From assembly GCA_030390025.1 (NCBI GenBank), contig CM059432.1, positions 68,512,001 to 68,576,000 on the forward strand: 64,000 nt of DNA, given 5' to 3'. This DNA comes from Squalus acanthias. Its lineage: Eukaryota. Below the pieces are notes generated by a model that ran no database searches, was not told the DNA's origin, and saw only the letters and a list, made by a program, of their open reading frames with translations. A program made the translations under genes and the position numbers. Below are positions 12,059 to 50,500 of this stretch, piece after piece. Within the stretch, counting starts at the first letter, position 1, and each line of letters starts with the position of its first letter.

Positions 12059-13075
12059 GGCCGTGATTTCCCCTACCTCGGCTGGTCCGGAGCGTTCAAC
12101 GTCGGTGGCGGGTCCTGAACCTGCTGCTGGCTCCAGCCCGCTCTGTAGAATGATTTTACATTGATTGGGCTTGTTAAGCCCACCCAGCGCATTTCTCAGC
12201 CAATTGAAGGAAGCGTGTCTGATGACGTCATTTGATGACGCATCATCAGCTGGTTTTCTTAAAGGGACCATGCGCAAATTGATTTTTTGACAGTTGTGCT
12301 GTCAGTGTTCTACATTGAGGTGCTGTAAACACTGGCAAGCACTGCACAAAGGTACATGTCTGCACCCAGGCTCTCCCATTACTCCCATATGCTTATAGAG
12401 GGACTCACAGCACGCAGGGAGGTCCTCTTCCCTTCCCATAGGCAGAAGAGACCTCCCCAGGAGATCAACGCAGCCTGGTTGCACATTGCACAGGAGGGCA
12501 CAAGCAGGGATGTCGTCAGGAGGACCAGGCTGCAGTGGCACAAACCTTTCAATGATCTCAGCAGATCACGAAACGTTACTGCCAAGCCCCACTCAACCTC
12601 ATCCTGCTGTGCCACTCATCACATCCACATCACTCTGCCTTCCCTAACCTACTCCTGCACATCTTTACTCACACCAACTTACCTTGCACCTCTACCCATC
12701 CCTCTCTATCTACATTATCACTTCCCCATCTCACTAGCCACCCATCACACTCACCCTCAAGCTACTGCAAGCATAGAGATTAACAACACACAAAGGTAGG
12801 CACCTGGGTGGTTTAGCCAATGTTCATGTGAAGTTTCTGTTAATCTGTTGTCAAACATTGAAATCTATATTTTCAACATGTTACCTTATTGGACAGATCT
12901 GTGCTCACCTTTGGAAGTGTCTTAGTGAGTTCCAGTGAATGTTGAGATATAACTTGCCCCCCTGCCACCCCCAACCGCAATTGTGATTGTGAAAGGAATG
13001 CCTTGGACATTGTAGGGATGCTTTATGGTGTTGGTGTGGGGTGGTGCCAACCTGGAGCATTATGTGGCAGCCAGG
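12059..13075 (+). mobile_element. Non-autonomous Harbinger-derived element, left half with Myb/SANT exon 1
   Basis: Starts GGCCGTGATTT. ORF 12356-12799 begins MSAPRLSHYSHMLIEGLTARREVLFP...AWLHIAQE...RTRLQWHKPFNDL. Colinear with 29023-29980. Confidence 0.85.
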
Positions 13076-13076
13076 G

Positions 13077-16539: not shown

Positions 16540-19136
16540 GGGTTGGATTTTAATGTGTAGGAGCGCATGGGTTTGGTTGTGGGTGGGGGGTTAAATTGAC
16601 AGCGTGTCAGGAAGCCGGCTCCAACCCGCCAACTTCCAGGTTTCACTCCAGTGCGTTACGCTGCGTGCGAGCAACCCCTGCAGGTGGACCAAGGCACAGA
16701 TCTCAGAGCCTCCTCCTCAGAGGATTCCAAGGAGGAGGAGGAAGACGAAGAGGCAGAAGGTGATGAGAGTAATGCACTACCAGTGGCGCACTTTGCTGCG
16801 TGGGATGCACCAACTGACCTGATTATTGCGAGGTTCACTTAGGTTCCACCAGTGCACCAATCCCACAACCTCATGCAAAAGCCACTTACCCTCTCACGCC
16901 GGCCGCCACCCCACCAATGCCACTAACACGAAGCAGCCCTGCAAACAACCAAGCATCCCTTTCATATCTCCCCATTGGTCGCCACCAATTTAGGTCTTCC
17001 CATTCATCATCAAACAACTGAAAATGCCACTTGCCAAACAGCACCCAAGAATGGGCAACACGAGAAAGTGGTGCAAAACAGTAATATTTGTGTGCTTTAA
17101 ATGAAGAAAGGACACTTAACAGTACAACAATGTGTAAGACACCCACGTGCATACCCTGTGCAACTACAAATCTTTACTCTTACTTTTCCCAGTACTTCTA
17201 TATGGTGCAACCCCTGTGGCTTGAGCAGAAGTTGAGGCAGGCTGCTCCGATCCCTGCTCTGACTGCTGAGATGCTCTTGGACGATGTCCTCTGAGTGTTG
17301 GAGTCCGTGAGGGCCCCGCCAAAGACTGCGCCACCTGCACCTGTGCAGGGGCAGACTCGACCTTCAGGACATGAGGCAGCATGTGGGATACTGACTGAGG
17401 TGGGGGGCAATGGGTGAGAAGTGGAAGCGCTGTGAGCGGAGTCTCCGCTTCCATGTCCCCTTTTGGGATCATCCTTCTCATGGCCCAGCCGCACTTTGCT
17501 GCAGATCAGTGGGGCGCTGCAAGGCCAAGGCTAGGGTATTATTCATCCTATTTAAGATGGTAGCCAGAGTCTGCAAGCCCTTGTTCAAGGCTTGTTTGAT
17601 TGCCATGTTTGATGCTCCATGCAGTTGGCCACTCCATCCATGGAAGAAGACATCATCGCAATGGCCTGCGACAGCATTTGACTCATGCTTGAAGCTGACT
17701 CCTCCAATCTCTCTGCAGTTATCAACAGTGTACTTGGAATACCTGTCAGGACATCGCATAATCTCTGCTGCTGCTCAATGATTATCCTCTTCATCGACGG
17801 CCCCCAGGATACATCATCTGCATCCAGCTGAAGCAGAGCTTGTACAGGCCTGTGCCTTCCGATGCGAACTCTCCTCAGCTGTCCCTGACTTCACCTCTCG
17901 CTCTTGCTCACTTGTGAAGTGCAAGTCACCAGGTGAAAACCCAACTATCTCTGTAACTGGTCCCACCGAAGTGCGAGTATCTGAGCTGGTACATGGTAAG
18001 CATGAGTCCTGTGACAGCGAACCATCAGAGGGATTTAGCTCCTCTGAGGAATTGTCATTGCCGACCCCAACCAACTCCTGCTGGATGCGTGAAAGCCCTG
18101 TAGGAGATAAAAGACACGAGTACTGTCAAGGTAAGAATGTTAGAAGTTACCATTATGAACATGATCATATTTCACTCGCTGTTGACATCAAGTCAACATG
18201 AGAGAGTGTTGTATGCCATGTGGCTGTCTGATATTTTATTCTGTCACCAAGTAGCTGGAAGACCCCCATCTCCCCATCTCCGACAGCCAGGCACGCTGAG
18301 ACTCCGCTGATCTCCAGCGCCTCCTCCTCTGCAGCTGTTAAATGTGAGAAGGCTGGAGGGCCACCTCCAGTTCTCTGCCTCTCCCTGGTGTTTCTGCTCT
18401 CCTACTCCAAGGAGGGAAAGAAAAGACCTATGAGTGAGAGTGATGGCTTGTGTTCACCCGATGGATGGAGAACATTTGTTGAGGGTGACTATGAGGGAGA
18501 GTCATGACATTGCATAAGGATGAGGGTGAATGTCAGTGATGGATAGAAGATGTGGATGTGAGGAAGTGCATAGACAGAAAGGGATGGGTGCACCTGCAAG
18601 GTAAGTTGGTGTGAGGAGTGATATGCTGCAGTAGGCTTGAGAAGGCAGAATGCAGGGTTTAGGGAGATAAACACATCAGGATGTAGGTGAATGTGCCATT
18701 GCTCTCACCTTGCCTGCCTGGTTTGGTCATTAAACTACTTCCTGCATTGGATCCAGGAGCATGGCACAACGCTCCTGCTGCTGACCTCTTCTGCCATCTC
18801 CCTCCAGGTACTCACAGCCCCCAAAAGCACATCCAGAGAGGTATCTGTGAAGTGGGGCACAGCCTTTGAACATTTCACTTACATTTCTGACCTTCCTCCT
18901 CTTCTTCCCAACTCCAACCCCTTCAACTTGCCTGTTTGGATTGCCCCTTTAAATACTGGAGTTGCGATCACGTCATGTGGGACGTCATCATGCCCGCTGA
19001 CGCTGATTGGACTGGAAATACTAATGAAGTGGCCGTGTTAAAAAGCCACTGACAGACACGCTTAACATATTTCCGGGTTTCCCATGCGCTATCGGGTCCC
19101 CCGGTCCCAGCGTGTCTGCACATTAAAATTCAGCCC
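16540..19136 (-). mobile_element. Internally deleted PIF/Harbinger transposon with a 3-exon Myb/SANT pseudogene on - and a transposase C-terminal stub on +
   Basis: TIRs GGGTTGGATTTTAATGTGTAG and rc GGGCTGAATTTTAATGTGCAG (18/21). Minus-strand exons at ~18709-18880, ~18250-18410 and ~17164-18097 are homologous to the gene at 43384-45277. The + strand at 16670-16842 ends AHFAAWDAPTDLIIARFT*. Confidence 0.85.
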
Positions 19137-24138: not shown

Positions 24139-27100
24139 ATTCTCGAAATCCGCGTTTCGGAGCCAGAGCTGCGGCTGGAGTCACTGTGGAGCATCCGCGA
24201 GGCTGAGATCTTTGTGGATAGCACGTTTAATGAGGTGGTCACGCTGCAGGTAAAGAGTGCACAGACAGACAGGGAATGGGTGACCGCCAGACAGAGTAAA
24301 AGAACTAGGAAGGTAGTGCAGGAGTCCCCTGGGTCCATCTCCCTCTCCAACAGATTTTCCGTTTTGGATACTGCTGGGGAGATGGTTTCTCAGGAGAATG
24401 CAGCAAGAGCCAAGTCCGTGGCACTACGAGTGGCTCAGCTGCACAGGAGGGGAGAAAAATGAGTGGGAGAGCAATAGTGATAGGGATTTCTATCGTAAGG
24501 GGAACAGATAGACGTTTCTGTGGCCACAGATGTGACTCCAGGACGGTATGTTGCCTCCCTAGTGCCAGGGTCAAGGATGTCACTGAGCGACTGCAGGACA
24601 TTCTGAAGGGGGAGAGTGAACAGCCAGAGGTCGTGGTCCATATCGGTACCAATTACATAGGTAGAAAGAGGGACGAGGTCCTGCAAGCAGAATATAGGGA
24701 GCGAGGAAAGAAATTAAAAAGCAGGACCTCAAAGGTAGTAATCTCAGGATTACTCCCAGTGCCACGTGCTAGCGAGAGCAGAAATAGGAGAATAGACCAG
24801 ATGAATGCGTGGTTGGAGAGATGGTGTCGGAGGGAGGGATTTAAATTCCTGAGGCATTGGGACCGATTCTGGGGAAGGTGGGACCTGTACAAGCTGGACG
24901 GGTTACACCTCGGCAGAAGCGGGACCAACATCCTCGCAGGGGGGTTTGCGAGTGCTGTTGGGAAGGATTTAAACTAGTTTGTTAGGGGGCTGGGAACCTA
25001 AGTGTGGGCCCAGAACGGAGAGAAACAAAGTTGGAAGTGCAAGTTAAAAAAATAGTCAGCAAAACTAGTAGGGAGCAGAAACAAAGGCCAACAGTAAAGA
25101 GGGTCAAAGTGCAGAAAAATATTAAACAGGCAAAGTTGAAGGCACTTTATCTAAATGCACGTAGCATTCGCAACAAGGTGGATGAATTAATGGCACTAAT
25201 AGAAGTAAATGGGTATGATGTAATTGCCATTACAGAGACATGGTTGCAGGGTAACCAAAGCTGGGAACTGAATGTTCCAGGGTACTCAACATTTAGGAAG
25301 GACAGACAAAAAGGAAAAGGAGGTGGCGTAGCACTGTTAATAATGGATGAGATCGGTACGGTAGAGATAAAAGATCTTGGCTTGGCAGATCGTGATGTGG
25401 ATCTGGAATCAGTTTGGGTGGAGCTAAGAAACAGCAAAGGGCAGAAAACATTGGTGGGAGTTGTGTATAGGCCACCAAACAGTAATGGTAATGTAGGGCA
25501 CAGTATCAATCAAGAGATTAGAAGTGCATGTAACAAGGGCAATACGGTAATCATGGGGGACTTTAATCTACATATTGACTGGGCAAATCAAATTACCACT
25601 AATGGTGTGGAGGACGAATTCTTGGAATGCATGTGAGATGGTTTCCTGGATCAGTATGTGGAGGAACCAACCAGGGAACAGGCTATTCTGGATCTGGTAC
25701 TGTGTAATGAGAAAGGGCTAATCAATAATCTTGTGGTAAAGGGGCCTTTAGGGACAAGTGACCATAATATGATTGAATTTTATATTAAGTTTGAGAGTGA
25801 TGTAGTCCAATCTGAAACTAAGGTCTTCAATCTAAACAGAGGAAACTACAAGGGTATGAGGGACAAGTTGGCCATGGTAGATTGGGAGACTACACTAAAA
25901 GGTATGAAGGTGGACATACAATGGCTAACATTCAAGGAAATAATGCATAATTTGCAACAAACATATATTCCTCTAGGGCATAAAAACCCAAAAGGAAAAA
26001 CGATCCAACCATGGCTAACAAAAGAAATTAAAGCTAGTATTAAGTCAAAGGAGGAAGCTTATAAAGTTGCCAGAAAAAGCGGTCAGCCTGAGGATTGGGA
26101 TCTTGTTAGAAATCAGCAAATGGGGACCAAGAAATTGATAAAGAAAGGGAAAATGGAATATGAGCACAAACTAGCGAAAAATATAAAAACGGATTGTAAA
26201 AGCTTCTATAGGTATGTGAAAAGGAAAAGACTGGCGAAGGTAAATGTAGGTCCTTTACAGTCAGAGACGGGAGAATTTATAATGGGGAATGAGGAAATGG
26301 CAGAGAAATTAAATAAATACTTTGTTTCTGTCTTCACGGAGGAAGACACAAAAATCCTCCCAGAAATACGAGAAAACCAAGGGTGTGACGAGAATGAGGA
26401 ACTTAAAGAAATTATTATTAGTAAAAAAACAGTACTAGCAAAATTAATGGGACTAAAAGTCGATAAATCCCAAGGACCGGATGACCTACATCCTCGGGTT
26501 TTGAAAGAGATGGCCATTGGAATAGTGGACGCATTGGTTGTCATCTTCCAAAATTCTATAGATTCTGGAATGGTTCCTGCAGATTGGAGGATAGCAAATG
26601 TAACCCCGCTATTTAAGAAAGGAGGGAGAGAGAAAACGAGGAACTACAGACCTATTAGCCTCACATCAGTAGTTGGGAAAATGCTGGAATCTATTATAAA
26701 GGATGCAATAACTGGGCACTTAGAAACTAATAGTAAGATTTGGCAGAGTCAACATGGATTTATGAAAGGGAAATCCTGTTTCACAAACCAATTGGAGTTC
26801 TTTGAGGATGTAACTAGTGGAGTAGACAAAGAGGAACCGGTAGATGTGGTGTATCTGGATTTTCAGAAGGCCTTCGATAAGGTTCCACACAAGAGGTTGG
26901 TGAACAAAATTAGGGCACATGGAATTGGGGGTAATATACTAGCATGGATTGAGAATTGGTTAACAGACAGAAAACAAAGAGTAGGGATAAACGGGTCTTT
27001 TTTCAGGATGGCAGGCTGTGACTAGTGGGGTACCACAAGGATTGGTGCTTGGGGCCCAGCTATTCACAATCTATATCAATGATTTGGATGAGGGGACTAA

Positions 27101-28050
27101 ATGTAACATTTCCAAATTTGCTGATGATACAAAGCTAGGTGGCAGTGTCAGTTGTGAAGAGGATGTGAAGAGGCTTCAAGGGGATCTCGACAGGCTCAGT
27201 GAGTGGGCGAGAACATGGCAGATGGAATATAATGTGGAGAAATGTGAAGTTATCCACTTTGGTAGAAAAAACAGAAAGGCAGAGTATTTCCTAAATGGTG
27301 AAAGATTGGGGAATGCAGATGCGCAAAGGGACCTGGATGTCCTTGTACATGAGTCACTGAAAGTGAATGTGCAGGTGCAGCAAGCCATTGGGAAGGCAAA
27401 TAGTATGCTGGCCTTTATTGCAAGAGGATTTGAGTACAGGAGTAAAGAAGTCTTACTCCAATTATATAGGGCCTTGGTGAGACCACACCTGGAGTACTGT
27501 GTACAATTTTGGTCTCCTTACCTAAGGAAGGATATACTTGCCATAGAGGGAGTGCAACGAAGGTTCACGAGATTGATTCCTGGGATGGTGGGACTGTCGT
27601 ATGAGAAGAGATTGAGTAAACTAGGCCTGGATTCTCTTGAATTCAGAAGAATGAGAGGGGATCTCATTGAAGCATACAAAATTATTACAGGGCATGATAG
27701 GATGGATGCTGGGAGAATGTTTCTCTTGGCTGGGGAGTCTAGAACCAGGGGCCACAGCCTCAAAATAAAGGGTAGGCCATTCAGGACTGAGATGAGAAGA
27801 AATTTCTTCACACAGAGGGTGGTGAATCTTTGGAATTCTCTACCCCAGAGGGATGTGGAGGCTCAGTCATTGGGTATATTCAAAACAGAAGTCGATAGAT
27901 TTCTGACTAGTAAGGGCATCAAGGGATATGGCGATAGGGCCGGTGAATGGAGTTGAGGCAGAAGATCAGCCATGATCTCATTGAATGGCGGAGCAGGCTC
28001 GAAGGGCCGAATGGCCTACTCCTGCTCCTATTTCTTATGTTCTTATGTTC
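24139..28050 (+). mobile_element. Nearly full-length CR1 LINE: partial ORF1 with SGNH/esterase domain, and ORF2 APE endonuclease plus RT with two lesions
   Basis: ORF1 24459-24977 (IVIGISIVRGTD, VVVHIGTN, DGLHL). ORF2 ~25004-27956 (YLNARSIRNK, ITETW, GDFN, SDH, FADDTKL) is broken by one stop at 25634-25636 and one frameshift near 27000. Tail (TTCTTATG)n. Confidence 0.95.
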
Positions 28051-28639: not shown

Positions 28640-30895
28640 ATGCTGGAAACATGTTGGGAGATAGAATTCAATATCAGTAAGTGTGCGGTGATATATTTTG
28701 TTAAAAAATGTAGTAATAATAATACTTTGAATGGGGAAAGGTTGGGAAATGTGCAAAATCAGAGAGATTTGGGGATTCAGGTTCACAAGATGTTAACAGC
28801 AGAGTAAATTATGGGGCAATATGATAGTGGTGTTTAAAGTTATGAAGAGTTGGGGTAGATAAAGAAATAGTTTCCAGTGATTGAGGTATCTAGACCAAGG
28901 GGACATAGCGATAAGGTTAAATGTAAAAGATTTAGGACAGAAAGCAAGAGAAACCTTTTTACATAGAGCATTTTGAGGTAGTTGAATGCATTATTGGAGT
29001 TAATGAATGAAGCAGAGACCATGGCCGGGATTTTGCTCACTTAGGTGGGTCCGGAGTGGGCGACGGCGGTGGCGGGACCCAACCCCACTGCTGGCTCCAT
29101 CCCGCTCTGTGAAATGACTTTCCATTTATGGGGCTTGTTAAGCCCGCCCAGCGCGTTTGCCAGCCAATTAGAGGAAGCGGATCGGGTGACGTCATTTCAT
29201 GACGCGTCATCAGCCGCTTTCCTTAAAGGGACCATGGCCAACTTTATTTTGACATTTGTGCTGTCAAGTGTTCTACAGCATTGAGCTGCTGCAAACACTG
29301 ACAATGACTGCACCGAGGTGCAGGGCTGCACCCAGGTTCGCCCATGACTCCCTCCATATGCTTATGGAGGGACTCGCAGCACACAGGGAGGTCCTCTTCC
29401 CTTCCCATGGGCGGAAGAGACCTCCCCAGGATACCAACACGGCCTGGTTGCACATTGCACAGGAGGTCACAAGCAGGGATGTCGTCAGGAGGACCTGGGT
29501 GCAGTGGCGCAAACCTTTCAATGATCTCATTAGATCACGAAATATTAGTACGAAGCCTCTCATCGCATCCCCATCACTCTGCCTTCCCTACCCTACTCCT
29601 GCACATCCTTACTCACACCAACTTACCTTGCACCTCCACCCATCCCTCTCTCTCTATCTACATTATCACATCCCCATCTCAATCCAATCATACCAACTAA
29701 CAACACACAAGGGTAGCCACTTGGATGTTTTATCCAATGTTCATGTAAAGTTTCTGTTAATGTGCTGTCAAACATTGAAAACTTTATTTTCAACACTTTG
29801 TGCTCTTGGACAGATTTGCATGCACCTTTGGAAGTGGCTTAGTGAGTTGCAGTGAATGGTGAGACATAACGGTACCCCCCACAATGGTGGTGAGTGTGAA
29901 AGGAATGGCTTGGACATTGTAAGGATGCTTTATGGTGTTGCTGTGGGGTGGTGCCAACCTGGCGCATCATGTGGCAGCCAGGGTGTACAGCGTCAAGTGA
30001 AATAAATCTGGCCATGGTGAAGCCATCCCTGGCCTCTTGGGCAGCAATGTGCTCAGGTGCTGATGCCCTCTGTCCTGTGCAGCATCAGGTGATTGCGGAG
30101 AAGGTTGGTGTTGTTGTTGGTGCTGCTGGTGTGCCTGATGTTGGGGCTGATCGTGGTCGGATTCTGAGGACCAAGGTGAGACAGTATAAAGGGTAACCAT
30201 GTTGATGAAATACATGGCAGATGAAGTAGAGATGACAGAAGCATTATGTCAATGGTGAGAGAGTTCTTCCAAAGAGGTGATACTGGATAGAGAGTGGAAA
30301 GTGGAAAGCCTGCAGAATCTGTGCTGGAAATGGACTGAGAAACAACTTGTGGCTGAGGAAAGTGATGATCTGTCAGGTGAGAGCTTTCATTGTACACTTG
30401 AAGCTGTCAAGGAATCAGCTGGAGCAATGGCTACTGAACTCCCGCCTCAGGTTGGCAGCCGTGGTCCCCGAGCAGCCTGGTTCCCGTGGCCATGGAGTTA
30501 AAGTGAAAAGGTAAGTTAAAAATCCTGTTAATGATCTGTCAACAAGGAAATAATGAGATTAATGGGGTCAGCCGCCGCTGCCTGTCGTTTCTGCTCAGCA
30601 CTGACAGACCTAACATTGGGAAAGGCACGTGGCAGCAGGTCCCAACCCGTTGTGGAAAAAAAGCAATTTCCCAACCGACCCACCACCGATTGCACCCGCT
30701 CACCCCCCGCAAAATTCCAGCTCATGTCAACATTTAGGAATAAGTTGGATCAGTGGCTGAAGTATGGAGAGATAAAGGAAAATGGGAACAGGGCAGACAA
30801 CTGGGATTCAGACTACTGCTCATGTGGAGGATAAATACCAACATGGACTAGTTGTGCCATTTCCATGTTGTAATTTCTATATAATTCTATGTAAT
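28640..30895 (+). mobile_element. Old CR1 3' remnant (28640-29022 and 30723-30895) split by a Harbinger element
   Basis: IEFNISKCAVIYF...LNGERLGNVQNQRDLG. The flanks join as GAAGCAGAGACCAT|GTCAACATTTAGG. Confidence 0.7.
29023..30722 (+). mobile_element. Complete 1.7-kb non-autonomous Harbinger element with an open Myb/SANT exon 1 and a deleted transposase
   Basis: TIRs GGCCGGGATTTT/AAAATTCCAGCT, TSD CAT (29020-29022, 30723-30725). ORF 29256-29855 contains APRFAHDSLHMLMEGLAAHREVLFP...AWLHIAQEV...RTWVQWRKPFNDL. Confidence 0.9.
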
Positions 30896-31871
30896 TAAAG
30901 GTTACTGAATTACGCCTCTCTGCTGTCCATTTCATTCAGCCTGATTAGCCTTTCTTGCAAACCAATGTTTCATAACACCACTGTGATCACCAGCTGGTTT
31001 CTACTCATCACTGAGGTTTTGATCCATTAAGCTTAGGGCAGGGTCTGCAATAGTCTTGTCACATCATATGGCTTGGGTTTGTGGACTTCCTATGTTAAAT
31101 TAATGCTAAATCCACGCAGATTCCATTTCTGGAGAGCTTACTGCTTTCTTAATCACAGTCTTCTGTCACCTTTCCATGACTTCTAATTCACCAGCCATGA
31201 AACAGGAAGTTAGGTACTGTGCCACTTGTTCACAAGCTCCATTTCATAGAGTGATCGAATAGTACAGCACAGAGGGAGATCATTCGGCCCATCGAGCCTG
31301 CGCCGGCTCTTTCGAAGGGCAATCCAGTTCGTCCCACTCCCCTGCTCTCTCCCCATATTCCTGCAATTTTTTCTCCTTCAAGTATTTATTCAATTCCCCT
31401 TTGAAGGCTGTTATTGAATCTGTATCCACCACCCTATCAGGCAGTGCATTCCAAATCCTAACCACTCATTGCATAAAAAAGTTTTTCCTCATGTCACCTC
31501 TGGTTCTTTTGCCAATCACCTTAAATCTGTGCCCTCTGGTTATCGACCCTTCAGCCATTGGAAACTGTTTCACTTTATTTACTCTATCTAAACCCTTCAT
31601 GATTTTAAACACCTCTATCAAATCTCCTCTTAGCCTTCTCTGTTCCAAGGAGAACAACCTCAGCTTTCTAGTCTATCCAAGTAACTGTAATCCCGCATCC
31701 CTGGAACCATTCTAGTAAATCTTTTCAGTACCCTCTCCAAAGCCTTCATGTCCTTCCTAAAGTGTGGTGCCCAAAATTGGACACAATACTCCGGCTGGGG
31801 CCGAACCAGTGTTTTATATAGGTTTAGCATAACTTCCTGGCTTTTGTACTCTCTGCCTCTATTTATAAAGC

Positions 31872-32001
31872 GGGTTCGTGATTTTTTTTTTTTATAGTCC
31901 AACAGTTTTATTTGAAATCACAAGCTTTCGGAGCTATCGCTCCTTCCTCAGGTGAAGTAAATTGGATACAGAATCGCCTATAACCTGGTGTTGTGCGACC
32001 T
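31872..32001. mobile_element. 130-bp Penelope-derived mini-insert
   Basis: Flanked by a 15-bp duplication CTCTATTTATAAAGC (31857-31871, 32002-32016); shares sequence with 37631-37844. Confidence 0.8.
31918..31955 (-). ncRNA. Minimal type I hammerhead ribozyme motif, core intact
   Basis: The reverse complement reads TCAC-CTGAGGA-A-GGAGC-GATA-GCTCC-GAAA-GC-TT-GTGA: stem I TCAC/GTGA, 5-bp stem II, and palindromic AGCT replacing helix III. Confidence 0.75.
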
Positions 32002-32533
32002 CTCTATTTATAAAGCCCAGGATCCCATATGTTTTATTAACTGCTTTGTTAACCTGTCCTGCCACCTTCAAAGATTTGTGCACAAGCACCTCCTCCACCG
32101 CCCCCCAACCCCCCCCCCCCCCCCCCCCCGCCACCCCACCCCCACGCCCAGGTCTCTCTGTTCTTGCATCCCTTTTAAAATTGTATCATTTAGTGTGTAT
32201 GGTCTCTCCTCATTCTTCCTACCAACATGTATCACCTCACACTTCTCCTGTGTTGAATTTCAACTGGCATGTGTCTGCCCATTCCACCAGCCTGTCTATG
32301 TCTTCTTGAAGTCTATTACTATCTTCCTCACTGTTTACTACACTTACAAGTTTTGTGTCATCTGCAAATTTCAAAATTGTGCCACTGTACCCCCAATTCC
32401 AAGTCATTAATGTTTATCAAAAACAGCAGTGGTACCTGGTACTGAACCTTGGGGAACGTCACTGTATACCTCCCCATCTGAAAAACAGCCATTCACCACA
32501 ACTCTGTTTTCTATCCTTTAGCCAAATCTGTAT

Positions 32534-35500
32534 CATAGAAACATAGACATAGAAGATAGGAGCAGGAGTAGGCCATTCGGCCCCTCGAGCCTGCTCCGCC
32601 ATTCGATGAGATCATGGCTGATCATCTAAACTCAGTACCCTGTACCTGCCTTCTCCCCATATCCCTTGATACCTTTAGCTTTAAGAAATATATCTAACTC
32701 AACCTTGAATATATTTAATGACTTCGCCTCAACTACCTTCTGTGGTAGAGAATTCCACAGGTTCACCACTCTCTGGGTGAAGAAATTCTTCCTCATTTCT
32801 GTCCTAAATGGTTTACCCGTTATCCGTAGATTATGACCCCTGGTTCTGGTCTCAACCAACAATCGTGAACATTCTTCCTGCATCTAGTTTGTCCAGACCT
32901 GTCAGAATTTTATATGTTTCGATGAGATCCCCTCTCATTCTTCTATACTCCAGTGAGTATAAGCCCAATCGACCCAATCTCTCCTCATATGTCATTCCTG
33001 CCATCCCAGGTATCAGCCTTGTGAATCTTTGCTGAACTCCTTCCATGGCAAGAACATCCTTCCTCAGATAAGGCGACCAAAACTGCACACAGTACTCAAG
33101 GTGTGATCTCCCCCAGGCCCTGTACAACTGCAGCAGGACATCCCTGCTCCTATACTCAAACCCTTTCGCTATGAAGGCCAACATACCATTTGCCTTCTTC
33201 ACCGCCTGCTGCACCTGCACGCTTACTTTCAGCGACTGGTGCACAAGGACACCCAGGTCTCGTTGCACTTCCCCTTCTCCCAATCGATTGCCATTCAGAT
33301 AATAGTCTGCCTTTCTGTTTTTGACACCAAAGTGGATAACCTCGCACTTATCCACATTATATTGCATCTGCCACGCTTCTGCCCACTCACCCAACCTGTC
33401 CAGATCATCCTGGAGTTTCTCGGTATCCTCCTCGCAGCACACACTCCCACCCAGCTTTGTGTCATCTGCAAACTTGGAGATATTACATTTAATTCCCTTA
33501 TCTAGATCATTAATGTATATTGTGAATAGCTGGGGTCCAAGGACCGATCCCTGCGGTACCCCACTAGTCACTGCTTGCCACTCGGAAAAAGACCCATTAA
33601 TTCCTACTCTCTGCTTTCTGTCCGCCAACCAGTTTTCTATCCAAGTCAATACCTTGCCCCCAATCCCATGTGCCTTAACTTTACACGCTAATCTCTTATG
33701 CGGGACCTTATCGAAAGCCTTTTGAAAGTCCAAATACACCACATCTACTGGTTCTCCCTTATCTATTTTCCCAGTTACATCCTCAAAAAATTCCAGTAGA
33801 TTAGTCAAGCATGATTTGCCTTTTGTAAATCAATGTTGACTTTGTCCGATCCTGTCACTGTTTTTCAAATGCTCAGCTATTACATCCTTTATAATGGACT
33901 CTAGCATTTTCCCCACTACCGCTTTCTCTCTACCACCCTTTTTGAATAGTGGGGTAACATTAGCTACTCTCCAATCCATGGGTACAGTTCCAGATTCCAT
34001 CGAATGTTGGAAGATGATCAGCAATGCATCTACTATTTCTAGGGCCACTTCCTTAAGTACCCTAGGATGTAGATTATCAGGCCCTGGGGATTTATCGGCC
34101 TTCAATACCATCAATTTCCCTAACACCATTTCCCTGCAAATACTGATTTCTTTCAGTTCCTCCCTTTCATCAGCCCGTATGTTCTCCAACATCTCTGGGA
34201 GCTTATTTGTGTCCTCCTTTGTGAAGACAGAACCAAAATATGCATTTAATTGGGCTGCCATTTCTTTGTTCCCCATTATAACTTCCCCCGCTTCTGACTG
34301 CAAGGGACCTACACTTGATTTCACTAATCTTTTTCTCTTCACATATCTATAAAAGCTCTTACAGTCAGTTTTTATGTTCCCAGCAAGCTTACTTTCATAT
34401 TCTATTTTCCCCTTCTTAATTAATCCCTTTGTCCTCCTTTGTTGAATCCTAAACTGCTCCCAATCCTCAGGGCTACCGCTTTTTCTGGCCAATTTATATG
34501 CCCTCTCCTTGGATCTTATGCTATCCCTAATTTCCCTTGTTAGCCACGGTTGAGTCACCCTTTTTGTTTTATTCTTATGCCACACTGGGATGTACAAATT
34601 CTGTAGTTCATCCATGCAGTCTTTGAATGTTTGCCATTGCCTATCCACAGTCAACCCCTTGAGTGACATTCCCCAATCAATCCTACCCAATTCGTGCCTC
34701 ATACCATCGTAGTTTCCTTTATTTAAATTCAGGACCCTAGTCTCTGATTCAACTACTTCACTCTCCATCCTAATGAAGAATTCTATCATATTATGATCAC
34801 TCTGACCCAAGGGGCCTCGTACAACAAGATTGCTAATTAATCCTTTCTCGTTACATAATACCCAGTCTAAGATGGCCTGATCTCTGGTTGGTTCCTCGAC
34901 ATATTGTTCCAGAAAACCATCTCGTAAACATTCTAGGAATTCCTCCTCCACAGTATTTTTACTAATTTGGTTAGCCCAATCTATATGTAAATTAAAGTCA
35001 CCCATGATGACTGCTGTGCCCTTACTGCATGCTTCTCTAATTTCCCTTTTAATGCCGTCCCCAACCTCCGTATTACTGTTTGGAGGTCTATATACCACTC
35101 CCACTAACGTTTTCTGCCCCTTGTTATTTCTCAGTTCTACCCATACAGATTCCGCATCATCAGAGCTAATATCCTTCCTTTCAATTGTGTTAATCCCCTC
35201 TTTAACCAGCAATGCTACCCCACCTCCCTTTCTTTTTTGCCTATCTTTCCTAAATATTGAATAACCCTGGATGTTGAGTTCCCAGCCTTGGCCACCCTGG
35301 AGCCATGTTTCTGTAATCCCAATCAAATCGTATTCATTTACCTCTATTTGCGCAGCTAATTCATCCACCTTGTTCCGAATGCTCCTTGCATTAAGACACA
35401 AAGCCTTCAGGCTTGTTTTTTTAACGCTTTCAGACCTATATGAATTATTATTTACTATGACCATGTTTGATTTAAACTGTTGAGTTCTTTGCCTTCTACT

Positions 35501-35885
35501 TTTGTTTTTCTCCTTGTCTTTAGCTTTTATCCTTATTTCCCTTTCCTCTGTCTCCCTGCTCAGGTTCCCATCCCCCTGCCACTTTAGTTTAAACCCTCCC
35601 CAACAGCACTAGCAAACACTCCGCCTAGGACATCGGTCCCGGCCCTGCCCAGGTGCAGACCATCCCGTTTGTACTGGTCCCACCTCCCCCAGAACCAGTT
35701 CCAATGTCCAATCCCTCCCCCTTGCACCATTCCTCTAGCCACGTATTCATTTGAAATATCCTCCTATTTCTACTCTGACTAGCACGTGGCACTGGTAGCA
35801 ATCCTGAGATTACTACGTTTGAGGTCCTCTTTTTTAATTTACCTCCTAACTCCCTATATTCTGCTTTTAGGACCGTATCCTTGCT
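32534..35885 (-). mobile_element. Young CR1 LINE: end of ORF1 plus ORF2 with few lesions
   Basis: ORFs 33830-35464, 32852-33808 and 32632-32883. Lesions are one stop at 33830, an in-frame deletion removing the NYRPVSLTS motif (KGGREK|AVVGK) and a frameshift near 32850. Tail CATAGAAACATAGA. Confidence 0.95.
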
Positions 35886-36219
35886 GCTACTGCCCCTTTT
35901 ATCCCATGGGCTTCAATTTTGCTAACAAGCCTAGTATGTGGTACCTTATCAAACGCCTTTTGAAAGTCCATCTACACAACATCCACTGCACTGCCCTCAT
36001 CCAGCCTCTCTGTTACTTCACCAAATTCTCTATCAAGTTAGTCAAACACGATTTGCTCTTAACACGATTTTGTACTTCTATCTTGGGGTTTGCCTTTCAT
36101 TTCTTTTGGTCTGCTTCTTCTTTCTCCCCAGACAGCCTTTGGAAAGGAGGATAAATATTTTTAAACTTTTTAAAAGTTGGAAGAATTTTTGGAGCTCCTT
36201 AAAAGTAATATTGTCTGCA

Positions 36220-36390
36220 GTCCAAAAATGTGTGGGTTAGGTTGATTTGGCTATGATAAATTGACCCTTAGTGTTAGGAGGGATTAAATATGTGGGGTTA
36301 TGGGGATAGGATGGGATATGTGTACTGTGGGGATTAAAGCAGGGACAGGGTACTGGATTTGGATGATCAGCCATGATCGTATTGAATGTA
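36220..36390 (+). mobile_element. V-SINE fragment
   Basis: Near-identical to parts of 7625-7845. Followed by a Penelope tail fragment (36450-36550) with a decayed hammerhead motif. Confidence 0.8.
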
Positions 36391-37630
36391 AGGACCACCG
36401 AGTTGCATTGAATAAATCCCCCTGCATGCATAAATTGTGCCCCCTGCACCTAACAAAGGGTCATCGACCTGAAATGGTAACTCTGTTTCTCTCTCTACAG
36501 ATGCTGCCTGATCTGCTGAGTATGTCCAGCATTTTCTGTTTTTATTTCTTATTGGTGCATTGTGATGTGCTCTTTTATGATTATGGAATGGGGACAAAGT
36601 TACACAGTAGGCAAATTTACAAGAAGTTGAGCATCGTGCCTAAACCATGTATAAATGCATCTGGTGTTGCTTGTGGATAATAGGTGAAAAAATACTTCTT
36701 TGTTTATTTTTACTTATTTTCCATGGCTGCAGTCAATAAAAAAAAAAAATTTAAATGGAGAGATAAACATACATATGCACCCTGTTCTCACCAGTTGTGC
36801 TATGCTAATGTCGAGGCTTACAGTTTTGCAATACATGCACAACTAAAAGATAAATATGGTATAGAAATGTAGTTCCATCACAGTAGTCATAGCTTCATAT
36901 TTCTATAGTATTTGGCTGTATTTCATTGGACATTCCTTTCAGTTAAATATATCAAATTATATTCTATTACTTACAATTGACAACTGGTTTCAAGAGGAAT
37001 TGCTGCAAGCAAAGCAAATAGCATGCATCTATTTAATCTGGAATAAACTGGATATGGTTTGATTAAAAAAAAATCAAAATTGAGAGTAAAAGGAATCATC
37101 AATAAAGGCACTGTACAAAATTATAACTGAAGACATGTTATAAAACTGCAGTCTTGTAATTGCTTTAAAAGAAATTGCTGTCTCAGTCCCATGTGGGTAT
37201 CAGATAGTGAAAAGAACCATCAATATTGGTGGCTTGTATGTTCTAACAGATATCTAATAACCTCTAAACAAACAATAGATACAAAAACAAATACCCATAA
37301 CTTCAATGCGTGGCACTGTACTCCAATGACTGGATGTCATTTACAATTTTACTTTCCTAATATCACAGCTTAGCAACATTTCAAGTAACAAACAGATATA
37401 TGTTTGTAAATTCAGAAAGAATTTTCTGCTTTTCTCTCCAGTTTTTCCTGTTCAGCCTGATCACTATATATCGGAATCAAACCACCATAGTATGTCTAAG
37501 GTTAGTATTACATAGGAGAAATGTATCGAAAAATAGTACCTGTAAATTTCAATACTGAATGGTACAAAAAAGAAAGGAATCATAATAAAAATTTAATATT
37601 TTTTTGTACACCTTGTTACCTTTAAAGTAG

Positions 37631-37844
37631 CCATGATGCGGAGATGCCGGTGTTGGGCTGGAGTGGACAAAAGTGAGAAGTCGCACAACACCAGGTTATA
37701 GTCCAACAGCTTTATTTGAAATCACAAGCTTTCAGAGCGCTGCTCCTTCGTCTGGTGAAGTGACCTGACGAAGGAGCAGCGCTCCGAAAGCTTGTGATTT
37801 CAAATAAAGCTGTTGGACTATAACCTGGTGTTGTGCGACTTCTC
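37631..37844. mobile_element. 214-bp Penelope-derived fold-back insert
   Basis: 13-bp TSD ACCTTTAAAGTAG (37618-37630, 37845-37857). Inverted arms 37673-37756 and 37763-37846 with two mismatches and a 6-nt loop. Confidence 0.9.
37761..37796 (+). ncRNA. Minimal type I hammerhead ribozyme motif
   Basis: TGAC-CTGACGA-A-GGAGC-AGC-GCTCC-GAAA-GC-TT-GTGA, with one mismatch in stem I. The mirror copy on the - strand has a CTGA to CAGA core mutation. Confidence 0.7.
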
Positions 37845-38165
37845 ACCTTTAAAGTAGTAACACATAAAAAAATACAGATTTAACAGATTACATTAGTGAC
37901 ATTTCTTCTATTCACAGGATTTATTTCTTCTAAATATGAATTGATGTATTAATAACAAATGCTGAAGCAACATCAATGTAAAGTAACTCATTAGTATATA
38001 TTGTGGTGGTGGGGGGCTTGTAGAGAATACAAAAATATCAACATATGATAAATAGTCCATGTAAACAGGAGAAAATGGCAGATAATCTGAAAAATATTTC
38101 CATTTTTCTTGACATCTAGAAATGTCATGTATATAATCTAATTAGCTGACACAGCTGAAGATAAT

Positions 38166-38921
38166 GGCCCGTATTTTCCGATGCCTACGGGTGTGTACGG
38201 GCTGTGTACCCACCCGTAGGGACAACGGAAATGCCGGTTTCAGGCACGCGAAGCGCATGCGCTGAAAACCGGCATTTCCGATCTGTCAAGAATGCTTTTG
38301 ACAGATCCTCCGCCTGCCCTGGAGAAGGGCCTCTGCGGGCAGAGAGTTCCGCTTTCTGGAGACCCTCCGCCCACTGAAAACCCTTAGAAATCTTACGCCT
38401 GGTAAAAGCGTAAGGCCTGCTTTTACCAGCATAAGAGTTGAAAAAAGTTTAAAAAAAAAAAATTTCACTCATTTATAATTTTAAAATACTTTTAAAAAAG
38501 GTAAGTTTATTTTTAGCCCCGTAAAAAACTTTAATTATTTTTTTCAAAAAATAAAATTTTTGTTTAAAATATTTAATTTAATGTAATTTTAACTCATTTT
38601 AAAAACGTGATGGTTTTTTAAAAATTTATTTAATGTTTTAGTGTCTTTTTGGGGTGCTCTCCATTCATATATTTGACAGGTCTATCTGTCAAAAATATGA
38701 AGGGAGATTCCCTTCTCCTATTGGCTGGCCTGGCCCACGCGATCCCAGGGACGCTTGCGGCTGCATGCGCCTCTGGGATACGTGGGCCCTGCACATTTCG
38801 ACTGTGGAGAGGCCCAGGAGCGGAAGTGTCCGGACCTCGGGGACCCTCAGGTAAGTTCGTAGATTTTTTTCCGATAGGAGGCATCCGCACGCAGGAAGCC
38901 TCCTATCGGAAATTACGGGCC
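38166..38921. mobile_element. Harbinger-type MITE with AT-rich centre
   Basis: TIR GGCCCGTATTTTCCGAT versus rc GGCCCGTAATTTCCGAT (16/17); TSD AAT on both sides. Confidence 0.9.
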
Positions 38922-38928
38922 AATACTG

Positions 38929-39363
38929 AGGCCGATTTTCTTCCCTACCCCACTTGCTCTAGTGTAAAACAAGTATTTTTACAATCACCCGACCTGACCT
39001 CCATTGAACCCTACTGTTTTTTCTGGGTTCAGCAAATCTAAATAGCCTGGACAAGCACTGGGTAAGACTACCACTTTGGATTTGGTGCTCACTGTAAATA
39101 GGGTACAGGAAGGCGTGCACTGCTGCAGGTTTTAATGACCTGAAGCAGAATAAAGTGGCAGCCTAATTTTGTGTCAGAAGCCCTGCAACACCAAAGATTT
39201 TGAAAGGTGGACCCCCTTTGAAGATCCCTCAAACTCAAAGTGCAGCCTAGCAATGTCGAGTATGCATTGACATTTTTCAATGATACAGGGCTCTACTCCT
39301 ATTTCTTGGCCTTCACCAACTTTGGGAACTGGTCCACATGGGGTGTGCAGAAGAATTGGCCCC
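38929..39363. mobile_element. Older MITE adjacent to the previous one
   Basis: Termini GGCCGATTTTCTT and AAGAATTGGCCCC; no clear TSD. Confidence 0.5.
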
Positions 39364-43383: not shown

Positions 43384-45277
43384 ATGGAGTCCCAACGGCA
43401 GAAGGCAGCACCCAGATTCTCCGACTCCTCCCTGGAAGTTATGCTCCAGGGAGTTTGAGCACGCAGGGACATCCTGTTCCTTGGTAACAGGCGCAAGAGA
43501 CCATCCACTGAGACCAAGGGAGCATGGTTGGAGATTGCCCAGGAGGTCAGCAGCAGAGGTGTAGTCAGCAGCAGAGGTGTAGTCAGCCGTTCCAGGATAC
43601 AGTGCCCCAAAAGATTTAATGATCTCATGAGGTTAGGAAAGGTGAGTGCAATGCCACATTCAAAGACATCCTGATGTGCCTGTCACCCCAACCCCATCAC
43701 TCTGCCTTCCCAAGCCTACTCCTGCACGTCACTCCTTACACCGACCTGCCTTGCAAGGTGCACCCATCCCTCACTGACTAACCACCACTGACATGCACCT
43801 TCATCCTAATGCAATCATAGGAAGTACCGCCACAGAAGGAGGCCATTTGGCAATGTCATGCCACTCTCTCATAGTCACCCTCTACAGATGTAGCCCATCC
43901 ATATACTCATTCCATCACTCTCACTCAAAGTTCTCTTCTTTACCTCCTTGCAGGAGAAGAGAGCGCAGAACATCCGGGAGAGGCAAAGAACCAGAGGTGG
44001 CCCTCCAATTTACAGCACATTGACTCCAGCAGAGGAGGAGGTGTTACAAATAAGTCGAGTTGCAGAGCTGCTGGCAGTGGGAAATGGAGAGAGGGGGACT
44101 TCCCAACAACCTGGTGACTGAATTAAATTCATACAGCCACATGGCATACAACAGTCACTCATGGTGGCTTGATAGCAGCAGCCAGTGAAATGTCATCATG
44201 TGCATAATGGTAACGTTACACATTCTTATTATAAGACTTCTAATTCATTTCTTTACTCTCCCACAGGTCCATCAAGTGCCCCCCCCCCCCCACCCATTGT
44301 TCAGCCAGAGGAGGAAGACGACTCCTCAGAGGAAGCTCCATCCTCTGAGGGTGCATTGTCACACGAGCCAGGCGCACCCAGCACCAGCGCAGATATGCAC
44401 ATGTCGGTTGGTCCTGCGAGACATAGAGTAGTGTTGTCACCTGATGTCTCACACATCACAAGTGAGCAAGAGCAGATGGTGGCGATAGGGACAGCAGTGG
44501 AGAGTCCTCGCCGGAGGTCACGACGCTCCAAGCTCTGCTCAGCTAGATGCAGATGTTGAACCTCGGGGGCCGTCAACACAGAGGTTGATCTTGGAGGAGC
44601 AGCAACAAATGCCCGAGGCTCTGGCAGCTTTACCAGCTGCGCTGTGCACGATTGTACAGAGAATGGAGGAGTCCATTTAGGGCCTGCGAGGGGCCAGCTA
44701 AAGACTGCTCCTCCTTTGAGTAGCACCATATCGCAGGAGATGGCGACGATGTGCTGTTCCATGGAAAGGATGGCCACCTGCATGGAGCAGCTAATGCATC
44801 AGTCGAACGAGAACATGCTTGCTGTGAACAACAGCTTGCAGACTCTCATTGACCTCATCTCTAGGAGGGATTCCAACATAGACTTGGGCGTTCATCGCCC
44901 CACTGATGTGCTGCAAGATGCTCTCCAGCTCCTTGCTAGCAGGGAAGTGTGGGTGGCCCATGAGAGGGATGATGGTGAGAGGGGACATGGAAGTGGGGGC
45001 TTTGCTCAAAGCGTTCCCACTTCTCCCCTGTTGCCTCCACCTCAGTCAGAGCCCCACCTGCTGCCTCGGATCCCGATGGCCGAGTCTGTCCCTGCACAGT
45101 TGCAGGAGGAGAAGCCTTTGGCTGGGCCCTCACAGGCATTAAAACCCCAGAGGACGTCTGTCAAAATTGTCGAAGCAGTCGCAGCAGGGAAGTGAGCAGC
45201 CTGCCTCTACCTCTGCTGATGCCACAGGGGTTGCACCTTGTAGAAGCACTTGGAAAAGAAAAATGACACAATCATAG
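43384..45277 (+). pseudogene. Harbinger Myb/SANT-like DNA-binding protein gene, 3 exons (43384-43641, 43954-44113, 44267-45277)
   Basis: Exon 1 MESQRQKAAPRFSDSSLEVMLQGV*ARRDILF...AWLEIAQEV...IQCPKRFNDL with donor AAG|GTGAGT. Exon 2 EKRAQNIRERQRTRGGPP...LTPAEE. Splice phases are compatible. Stop at 43456-43458 and frameshifts in exon 3. Confidence 0.85.
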
Positions 45278-45576
45278 ATGCACAAGGATATGCACATGGG
45301 TGTATGAAAAAATGTTAGTGTTAAGTTTCAGTTCTATTTATGATGCACATAAATTTATTTATTTGCACTTTCCCGTCTTATCCATTTTTGCCTGCTACCT
45401 GGGAAGTAGCTTTCTCACTTGGAGGGAATGGTGAGACATTAGTTAACCTCGAGCAATGGGTGTTTGGTTGACAGGAATGGTTTGGTCATTTTAGGAATGC
45501 TTTGTGGTGTTGGTGGGTGGGGACGCGGGGGAAGTTGGTACAGCATCTGGGAGCCATATGGGTGCACTGGTGCAAC

Positions 45577-46138
45577 TTAAGAAAATCTAGCCATTATGAG
45601 GCCATCCCAGGCCTCCCGGGCAGCAATGTGCGCCGTTGCTGGTGCCATCTCCATCTCAGGTTCCTCCTCCTCCGAAGAGGCTGTGCGCTCCGCGTCTTGC
45701 TCCTCCTGCAGCTCCAATCCTCGTTGCTGCGCTATGTTGTGAAGCGCGCAGCATATGATGATCATTCTCGAGACCCCAGTTGGTGCGTACTGAAGGGCTC
45801 CTCCAGATCTGTCAAGGCATCTGAAGCGGATCTTCAGCATGCTGATTGCTTGCTTTATGACACATCTGGTGGACATGTGGCTTTCATTATAGCGCTCCTC
45901 GGCCTCATTGCTTGGCCTCCTCAAGGGTGTCATCAGCCACTTCTTCAGTGGATAGCCCTTGTCTCCAAACAGCCAGCCAGTACGTCTCTGGCACACACAT
46001 GCATGATCATCTTTTTATGGTTGCAGACGAGCTGTACATTGAGGGAGTGGAAGCCCTTCCGGTTCACAAACAGTCCTGGGTGATGTGGGGTGCCTTGATG
46101 GCCATATGTGTGCAGTCGATGATGCCCTGCACCTGAGG
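45577..46138 (-). pseudogene. Harbinger (HARBI1-like) DDE transposase remnant
   Basis: [43 protein letters not shown]...LMTP...[26 protein letters not shown]...CCALHN. The N-terminus and the PGSxHD segment are missing, and the expected catalytic Glu reads Lys. Confidence 0.9.
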
Positions 46139-47529: not shown

Positions 47530-50500
47530 TCTAGTCAGGTCATTGATAAATCTGGAATAAAAAAGAAGCTAGTATCAGTAATGGTGACAATCAAAATCCA
47601 GGATTGTCGTAAAAACCCATCTGGTTCCTTTAGGGAAGGAAATCTGCCATCCTTACCTGGTCTGGTCTATATGTGACTCCAGACCCACAGCAATGTAGTT
47701 GACTCTTAACTGCCCTCTGAAATGGCCTAGCAAGCCGCTCAGTTGTACCAAACCGCTACAAACAAGTATACAAAGAATAAGACCAGACGGACCACTCGGC
47801 ATCAACCTTGACACTGGACACAACAAAGACACACCCAGCCCAGCCAACCCTGCAAAGTCCTCTTCACTAACATGTGGGGACAAGTGCCAAAATTGGGTCA
47901 GCTGTCCCACAGACTAGTCAAGCAACAGCCTGACATAGTCATACTCACAGAACCATAACTTTCAGCCAATGTCCCAAACTCCTCCATCACCATCCCTGGG
48001 TATGTCCTGTCCCACCGGCAGCACAGACCCACCAGAGGTGGAGGCACAGTGGTATACAGTCGACAGGGAGTGGCCCTGGGAGTCCTCAAGATTGATACCG
48101 GAACCCATGAAGTCTCATGGCTTCAGGTCAAGCATGGGCAAGGAAACCTGCAGCTAATTACCACCTACTGTCCTCCCTTAGCTGATGAATCAGTACTCCT
48201 CCATGTTGGACACCACTTGGAAGAAGCACTGAGGGTAGCAAGAGCACAAAATGTGCTCTGGGTGGGGGACTTCAATATCCATCACCAAGAGCGGCTCAGT
48301 AGCACCACTACTGACCAAGTTGGCCAAGACCTAAGGGACATAACTGCCAGTCTGGGCCTGCGACAGGTGGTGAGAGAACCAACACGAGTGCAAAACCTAC
48401 TAGACCGCGTTCTCACCAATCTACGTGTCGCAGATGCATCTGTCCATGACAGTATTGGTAGGAGTGACCACCGCACAGTCCTTATGCAGAAAAAGTCCCA
48501 TCTTCACACTGAGGACACTCTCCATCATGTTGTGTGGCACTAGCACCATGGTAAGTGGGATAGATTCAGAACAGATCTAGCTGCTCAAAACTGGACATCC
48601 ATGAGGCGCTGTGGACCATCAGCAGCAGCAGAATTATATTCCACCACAATCTGTAACCTCATGGCCCGGCATATCCCTCACTCTACAATTACCATCAAGC
48701 CAGGGAACCAACCCTGGTTCAATGAGGAATGCAGAAGAGCATGCCAGGAGCAGCACCAGGTGTACCTAAAAATGTGGTGCCAACCTGGTGAACCTACAAC
48801 TCGGGACTATATATATTCTAAACAACGGAAACAGCATGCTATAGACAGAGCTAAGCGATCCCACAACCAACGGATCAGATCAAAGCTCTGCAGTCCTGTC
48901 ACATCCAGTCGTGAATGGTGGTGGATAATTAAACAACTAAAGGGAGGAGGAGGCTCCATGAACATCCTCATCCTCAATGATGTGGAGTCCAGCAAGTGAA
49001 TACAAAAGACAAGGCTGAAGCATTCGCAACCTTCTTCAGCCAGAAGTGCCGAGTGGATGATCCATCTCGGCCTCCTCCTGAGGTCCCCACCATCACAGAA
49101 GCCAGTCTTCAGCCAATTCGATTCACTCCGCATGATATCAAGAAACGGCTGAGCGCACTGGATACAGCAAAGGCTATGAGCCTCGACAACATCCCGGCTG
49201 TCATGCTGAAGACTTGTGCTCCGGAACTAGCCGTGCCTCTAGCCAAGCTGTTCCAGTACAACTACAACACTGGCATCTACACGACAATATGGAAAACTGC
49301 CCAGGTATGTCCTGCCCACAAAAAGCAGGAAAAATCCAATCCAGCCAATTACCGCCCCGTCAGTCTACTCTCAATCATCAGCAAAGTGACGGAAGATGTC
49401 GTTAACAGTGCTATCAAGCAGTACTTACTCACCAATATCCTGCTCGCCAAAGCTCAGTTTGGGTTCCGCCAGGACCACTCGGCTCCAGACCTCATTACAG
49501 CCTTGATCCAAACATGGACAAAAGGGCTGAAGTCCAAAGGTGAGATTAAAGTGACTGCCCTTGACAAGAAGGCAGAATTTGGCCGAGTGTGACATCAAGA
49601 AGTTAATAGGAATCAGGGGGAAAACTCTCCAATGGCTGGAGTCATACCTAGCACGAAGGACGATAGTTGTGGTTGTTGGAGGCCAATCATCTCAGCCCCA
49701 GGACATCGCTGCAGGAGTTCCTCGGGGTAGTGTTCTAGGCTCAACCATCTTCATCTGCTTCATCAATGACCTTTCCTCCATCATAAGGTCAGAGGTGGTG
49801 ATGTTCGCTGATGATTGCACAGTATTCAGTTACATTCGCAACTCCTCAGATAGCAAAGCAGTCTGTGCCCCCATCAAACAAGACCTGGACGACATTCAGG
49901 CTTGGGCTGAGAAGTGGCAGGTAACATTCGCACCACACAAGTGCCAGGCAATGACTATCTCCAACATGCGAGAGTCTAACCACCACCCCTTGACATTCAA
50001 CGGCATTACCATCGCTGAATCCCCCACCATCAACATCCTAGGGGTCACCATTGACCAGAAACTTAACTGGTCCAGCCACATAAATACTGTGGCTACAAGA
50101 GTAGGACAGAGGCTGGGTATTCTGCACCGAGTGTCTCACCTCCTGACTCCCCAGAGCCTTTCCACCATCTACAAGGCACAAGTCAGGAGTGTGATGGAAT
50201 ACGCTCCACTTGCCTGGATGAGTGCAGCTCCAACAACATTCAAGAAGCTCAACACCATCCAGGACAAAGAAGCCCACTTGATTCGCACCCCATCCACCAC
50301 CTTAAACATTCACTCCCTCCACCACCGGCACACCATGGCTGCAGTGTGTACCATATACGAGATGCGCATCAGCAACTCGCCAAGGTTTCTTCAACAGCAC
50401 CTCCCAATCCTGCGACTTCTACCGCCTAGAAGGACAAGGGCAGCATACACATGGGAACACCACCTCCTCAAAGTTCCCCTCCAAGTCACTGGGTCAAAAT

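Follow-up and report, generated by a model that had tools for sequence, protein, structure and literature searches.

A 130-bp insert with a minimal hammerhead motif in Squalus acanthias, most likely a shortened and partly inverted scrap of a Penelope-like element

Does a very short insertion that carries a complete hammerhead motif represent a mobile unit spreading by means of its own ribozyme, or is it a by-product of a larger element? This question is raised by a locus on contig CM059432.1 of Squalus acanthias (GCA_030390025.1), within a stretch of 64,000 nucleotides (positions 68,512,001 to 68,576,000; hereafter the window). A first-pass annotation, made from the sequence alone, had left both readings standing. 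Our analysis indicates that the insert is most likely a one-off, shortened and partly inverted scrap of a Penelope-like element (PLE), and not a new ribozyme-driven mobile unit.

The insertion site

The insert (31872-32001, 130 bp) lies between two exact 15-bp copies of CTCTATTTATAAAGC. The locus and a sister insert of the same repeat family comprise the following features (positions within the window).

31331-32533, minus strand: host, a decayed LINE reverse transcriptase (RT) region split by the insert (tblastn with the window's LINE ORFs; Pfam RVT_1 on those ORFs)
31857-31871, plus strand: left target site duplication (TSD), 15 bp, 11 of 15 bases A or T, with empty-site joints in paralogous LINE contigs
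31872-31891, no strand assigned: filler of 20 nt (10 mixed bases and 10 T), private to this insert
31892-31978, minus strand: left arm, 87 nt of the terminal region (pLTR) of the repeat, 5'-truncated at 31978 and without the normal 3' end
31907-31912, minus strand: AATAAA hexamer, 13 nt before the A-run, present also in both arms of the sister insert
31918-31955, minus strand: minimal hammerhead motif of type I, with the cut predicted between 31922 and 31921
31978-32001, plus strand: right arm, 24 nt of the 3' part of the pLTR, inverted relative to the left arm
32002-32016, plus strand: right TSD, exact copy of the left one, with empty-site joints
37618-37857, no strand assigned: sister insert, body 37631-37844 with head-to-head arms
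37618-37630 and 37845-37857, no strand assigned: TSD of the sister insert, 13 bp, 9 of 13 bases A or T

Exact repeats of at least 15 bp, spaced 50-500 bp apart, occur six times in the window, the 31857/32002 pair included, so a 15-bp repeat alone proves little. That these two copies are true TSDs follows from empty-site joints in sequencing runs and from LINE homology that continues across the site. Contig alignments were examined for four of the 24 listed runs, namely X1, X5 and X15 (organism A; X15 is only guessed to be an RNA run) and X9 (organism D). Among the listed runs, none recorded as RNA contains the stretch, which counts neither for nor against it. The best run contains 0.61 of the words of the window and no listed contig spans the locus, which makes organism A probably a relative; contigs of this kind drop rare variants and show presence better than absence.

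Paralogous LINE contigs connect 31856 to 32002, omitting 145 bases, and the 15 letters of the duplication fit on either side. Such joints were seen in three of the four runs (among the joints listed, one contig in X1, 14 in X9 and three in X15), the joint being absent for X5 among the matches listed. All counts of joints and loose ends are taken from the best matches, for example the best 15 of 518 joints and the best 24 of 2599 loose ends; a contig that bridges the join between the two arms of the insert could lie among the others. At 31871, at least 174, 197, 242 and 29 contigs in the four runs exit directly into the right flank. Protein homology to the LINE RT also spans the site: in tblastn searches with the window's own LINE ORFs it reaches 32003 and restarts at about 31890. 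The exact repeats and the joints in three of four runs thus bear out the earlier description of a 130-bp insert flanked by a 15-bp duplication.

The host LINE is, as we take it from the domain order of its family, CR1-like. It is broken by a C-rich run of about 50 bases (32095-32150), which lies 80 bases beyond the right end of the insert; at 32084, contigs of the relatives depart from the alignment.

Anatomy of the insert and its hammerhead motif

Two head-to-head pieces of one highly abundant repeat make up 110 of the 130 bases, and the other 20 are filler; from left to right, the order is TSD, 20-base filler, 87-nt minus-strand arm, 24-nt plus-strand arm and TSD. The T-run reported by the first-pass annotation consists of 12 T at 31882-31893, two of which are templated by the family. 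The mixed 10-mer of the filler occurs a single time within the window. At the inversion join the two arms overlap by one base, the right arm starting on the CTATAA with which the left arm ends and so repeating its last 6 nt; at its other end, the right arm shows microhomology that reaches 3 nt into the TSD.

The left arm is identical to the sister insert at 60 of 67 bases, and 26 of 27 bases agree between the inverted piece (31978-32004) and 37818-37844. The right arms of the two inserts have a common end, within 2-3 bases of microhomology to their targets, and the end point previously said to be shared with the 37631-37844 insert holds within this ambiguity. Both right arms (two of two, a small sample) stop at one fixed internal site, and all three hammerhead-bearing arms in the window end 3-27 nt upstream of the core.

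The sister insert, judged by its inverted arms, one-sided tail, 13-bp TSD and AT-rich target, would be a standard PLE product. Its 44-nt tail is carried by the left arm only. Its left hammerhead has two changes in core or stem, and its right one is without part of stem I. A core of the form TTTA..AAAG is common to its target and to that at 31857. The tail ends on an ATG, within a 30-codon open frame. A word-index protein search with this frame gave no match and another search gave one match only, to a repetitive 4818-aa protein of a horsehair worm, which was judged spurious. A comparable short stretch may be present in the early ORF of elements of this type.

The claim of a complete hammerhead core on the minus strand was confirmed in each of its parts. 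Stem I has 4 bp (31955-31952 paired with 31921-31918); the CUGAGGA box (31951-31945) is followed by an extra A at 31944, a 5-bp stem II with a 4-nt loop, GAA, the palindrome AGCU (31926-31923) and the CUU triplet. The core pattern has two matches in the window where 0.09 are expected, and the full descriptor (core, stems I and II, extra base, helix-III palindrome, NUH triplet) has one match, with none in 40 shuffles. Searching the window with Rfam gave no match at the gathering score and, at E<=10, three chance matches, none of them to a hammerhead. The title under which the insert had been announced, as little more than a ribozyme, was right about the completeness of the motif and overstated its share, since the motif occupies only 38 of the 130 bases.

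The predicted fold of the motif has a z score of -2.24 and was equalled in 7 of 200 shuffles. Stem II is stable; stem I pairs poorly in context, with a predicted pair probability of 0.17-0.19 in the insert alone and of 0.01 or less with its flanks. A catalytic dimer is predicted at -23.3 kcal/mol against a cofold minimum of -28.2, i.e. about 5 above it, and would therefore be possible, not favoured. The solo minimal motif is a putative ribozyme that probably does not cut. Among the hammerhead copies in the window, only three in number, the stems are either invariant or broken and no compensatory changes were seen. Stem II is identical in the two intact cores and is kept while N7 and the length of loop II (3, 4 or 8 nt) differ among copies or subfamilies, a pattern consistent with selection acting on the motif within the parental element.

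Minimal hammerheads of this kind, in which a palindrome replaces helix III and an additional base precedes stem II, are described in the accessible text of PMC4209133 (Cervera & De la Pena 2014). Most of them stand alone or lie on opposite strands there and are called "probably related to truncated PLEs", and single motifs were found to be inactive and dimers weakly active. The present motif agrees with those in being of type I, in a helix I of 4-5 bp, in the extra base between positions 9 and 10.1, in the G10.1-C11.1 pair and the palindromic 15.2-16.2, and in occurring mostly solo, with opposite-strand pairs. It differs in that stem II has 5 bp, as against 7-8 bp in Schistosoma, and in that the normal 3' end is missing from one arm, which has a T-run filler instead. 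The available part of that paper names no shark. Work by Lunse et al. on PLE hammerhead dimers is covered by the review PMC6765202.

The repeat is very deeply covered over 31890-31999 in X1, X5 and X15. In X9 the same interval has no cover at 85% likeness, yet the LINE flanks are covered; such a gap is no proof on its own, but the 14 listed contigs join across it. Organism A thus has extreme depth over the hammerhead repeat where organism D has no cover at 85% likeness, the host LINE family being common to both, and the expansion would be patchy or lineage-specific. Patterns drawn from the family were unmatched in viral, metagenome and genome contigs and in phages, as expected of an animal repeat.

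The cover also delimits what belongs to the family. At 31892, at least 101 contigs in X1 and at least 91 in X5 continue into the usual end of the repeat, as the sister insert has it. Position 31874 is nearly without cover (one gapped contig in X1, none in X5, X9 or X15), and no repeat copies of the filler were seen in the four runs examined. Position 31964 is still deeply covered, and at 31978 at least 16 contigs (agreement 0.96) extend further upstream. It follows from the pattern at these positions that the stretch preceding the hammerhead is family sequence, that the left arm is just 5'-truncated and that the filler is private. Adding up the cover in X1 gives 4.0 million for the 3' half of the motif and 0.5 million for the stretch just upstream of the motif, a drop to be expected from 5' truncation or from divergence of subfamilies.

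Origin of the insert

It is very probable that the insert is a single, dead-on-arrival insertion produced by the machinery of an abundant PLE. Its architecture points to this class. Four of five PLE features looked for were found, namely a hammerhead belonging to the terminal repeat, arms that are inverted and 5'-truncated inside one TSD, a one-sided tail with fixed ends, and an AT-rich target with a short TSD; no RT or GIY-YIG ORF adjoins either insert in the window. The link to PLEs drawn by the first-pass annotation is thereby supported.

Inverted truncated arms, one-sided tails and TSDs are recorded for PLEs in the consulted parts of PMC8557442 and PMC3846280. As far as the latter describes the Penelopes of Adineta vaga (Arkhipova et al. 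2013), these share with our inserts the head-to-head pLTRs within a TSD, the one-sided tail and the microhomology at joints, and include one insertion into a LINE. Their TSDs have 8-10 bp compared with 15 bp here, and they mostly enclose an ORF or captured DNA, whereas the 31872 insert encloses neither. For a Poseidon PLE, the available text of PMC11167929 (Frangieh et al. 2024) reports a protein that nicks AT-rich DNA and extends both of its strands in vitro, reverse transcription that starts at two internal RNA sites bounding a 30-40-bp tail and uses uncleaved RNA, and a hammerhead that cuts only with the protein present. The Poseidon element PAc of Anolis carolinensis, as portrayed there, resembles the present case in its AT-rich target, priming on both strands, fixed internal starts and optional tail; its hammerhead about 100 nt upstream and its copies of uncleaved RNA are counted as further likeness. 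The present case departs from PAc in the 44-nt tail of the sister and in a left arm that starts at neither of the two usual sites. The proposal of an extreme truncation product with a defined end is supported by these comparisons: since that end agrees with the internal start of reverse transcription published for PLEs, no new family is needed.

From the anatomy of the insert and this literature, we infer the following course of events. The endonuclease of the element would make a break in each strand of an AT-rich site, the two breaks lying 15 nt apart, and each of the resulting 3' ends would prime reverse transcription on uncleaved element RNA. One primer would start at the usual internal site just before the tail and copy 24 nt, giving the right arm. 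The other would gain 20 extra bases ending in the T-run, anneal at the adjacent CTATAA and copy 87 nt through the uncut hammerhead, giving the left arm, after which the two cDNAs would be joined head to head at their 1-base overlap. The presence of a hammerhead is accounted for by its position: every terminal repeat has it 60-100 nt upstream of the start site, a distance that most short copies cover. Priming in the 5' terminal repeat may run off near the start of the RNA, so that tiny hammerhead inserts would arise as a by-product.

Some features sit uneasily with the PLE model: the tail of the sister insert, at 44 nt against the published 30-40; the 10 mixed bases of the filler, for which it has no explanation; and the combination of a 15-bp TSD with a T-run, which would suit a LINE enzyme too. 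Within this model the left end may be read in three ways. Twin-priming-like initiation on one RNA stands at about an even balance, priming on a poly(A) tail is conceivable and falls short of that, and a later repair is unlikely. The start of the right arm on the 6 nt where the left arm ends fits the prediction for twin priming given in the accessible part of PMC2912911. The L1 twin- or dual-priming inversions treated in the consulted parts of that paper and of PMC2837659 likewise show two primers, adjacent template positions, microhomology at the joint, an intact TSD and poly(T) at one end; they differ in the class of enzyme, and the first primer here starts internally and not on poly(A). Our literature search found descriptions of twin priming for L1 and none for PLEs.

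The AATAAA hexamer lies 13 nt before the A-run, which is the spacing of a canonical poly(A) signal, and the family is GU-rich directly behind the site; poly(A)-tail priming is for this reason a rival. The left arm would then have been copied from a polyadenylated transcript, with the PLE RT priming on the poly(A) after a template jump, and we hold this variant of the PLE model to be possible at a tentative level. A weak band reported in the accessible part of PMC11167929, likely primed from the template's 3' terminus, points the same way. The variant gives no account of the start of the right arm on the 6 nt where the left arm ends, and the A-run is followed by 10 other bases instead of the TSD. 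The filler bin, moreover, is no better covered in the runs bearing the family than in X9, which is without it (ratio to the preceding bin 0.077 in X1, 0.073 in X5, 0.096 in X15 and 0.085 in X9), an argument that weighs little since contigs cannot show RNA ends. One insert cannot decide between twin priming and poly(A)-tail priming. The more general proposal, that transcripts of the PLE family are terminated by a canonical poly(A) site situated directly behind the hammerhead in the terminal repeat and that the RT can use two priming modes, one internal and the other, reached by a template jump, on the poly(A) of uncleaved RNA, seems to us rather doubtful; a literature search that did not extend to most subscription journals retrieved no report of a poly(A) site or second priming mode in PLEs.

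We think it improbable that the repeat, in the form of a polyadenylated RNA, was copied in trans by a LINE enzyme (of CR1, L2, L1 or Tx1 type) and inverted by twin priming. The T-run near one TSD, the 15-bp length of the duplication and the wealth of LINE ORFs in the window would suit such an event, and structures of this kind are known for L1 from the available part of PMC2837659. Yet the right ends of the insert and of its sister lie at one internal site, which is a PLE trait, the inverted piece lies downstream and not upstream of the position of the A-run in the repeat, and the T-run does not abut the TSD.

Filler and homopolymer runs are found at repair joints, and the insert could accordingly have begun as an ordinary head-to-head insertion like its sister, the left end of which was later deleted and patched with filler. 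The deletion would have had to stop exactly at an intact 15-bp TSD, and we rate this history as less probable still.

The last reading, put forward in the first-pass annotation, is that the insert belongs to a discrete family of non-autonomous, retrozyme-like units, about 130 bp long, which spread via hammerhead-cut or circular RNA. The insert shares with metazoan non-LTR retrozymes, as treated in the consulted parts of PMC7229834 (Cervera & De la Pena 2020) and 10.64898/2026.07.22.740005 (Li et al. 2026 preprint), its short, non-coding nature, type I hammerhead, low GC content, long TSD and relation to pLTRs. Those elements form direct tandem repeats, of 150-450 bp in the former and 51-972 in the latter, with a hammerhead per unit that is canonical in the 2020 cases, whereas the present insert is one inverted scrap whose motif is minimal; tandem units, a canonical hammerhead and a recurring unit with its own ends were all looked for and not found. 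Although the intact motif, the clean TSD, the right end in common with the sister, the stem II unchanged in the two intact cores beside a varying N7 and loop II, and the many monomers and pLTR origin that retrozyme families can have (bioRxiv 10.64898/2026.07.22.740005, in the part available) would agree with such a family, it is highly improbable and is not supported, as there is no tandem array at either insert (30000-39000 examined), the motif is minimal and not canonical with a helix III, the arms are inverted rather than permuted, the ends lie off the cut site and the copy passes through the predicted cut, the left end is missing from the family among the listed contigs of the three runs, from probable relatives, that hold the family deeply, and the family extends past both ends of the left arm (31892 and 31978).

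Implications and other elements of the window

Solo minimal hammerheads in truncated, inverted PLE copies have been known since 2014, and an explanation of the fixed end followed in 2024; the family itself could already be recorded in the literature, for instance in subscription papers or in lists of hammerhead families by species. The use of such inserts lies in their value as a footprint: short and two-armed, with an intact TSD, they record where each primer started and stopped, and would bear on the steps of PLE integration beyond nicking and first priming. If the poly(A) reading were true, the insert would be the fossil of a second priming mode that marks the 3' end of PLE mRNA, and cleavage by the hammerhead just upstream of the signal would be a possible off-switch. 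The junctions of further inserts of this type in the genome could inform on both twin priming and the poly(A) site of the terminal repeat.

A second, different PLE-like family is present at 1730-2840. It comprises a remnant of a GIY-YIG C-terminus (Pfam E 0.0052, below the cut-off), a terminal repeat with a hammerhead-like core at about 2744-2775 that fails the full descriptor, and an inverted piece at 1778-1830, with more pieces at 3251-3380 and 36460-36548.

The window also holds two long LINE copies, 24309-28040 (plus strand) and 32547-35874 (minus strand), which are 73% alike over 3.4 kb, the former with a GDSL-lipase-like ORF, an endonuclease and an RT. Segments 32548-33525 and 59273-60249 are 97% identical and represent a young subfamily. 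Two further sets of LINE-type endonuclease-RT ORFs, at 47959-50598 and 60309-63697, were unmatched to the CR1-like copies in self-BLAST. Related repeat copies lie at 12049-13076, 29013-29983, 43404-45650 and 16774-18785. The ORFs at 12329 and 29253 match the Myb/SANT-like DNA-binding domain PF13873, below or above the cut-off, and the copies bearing this domain are presumably remnants of Harbinger-type DNA transposons.
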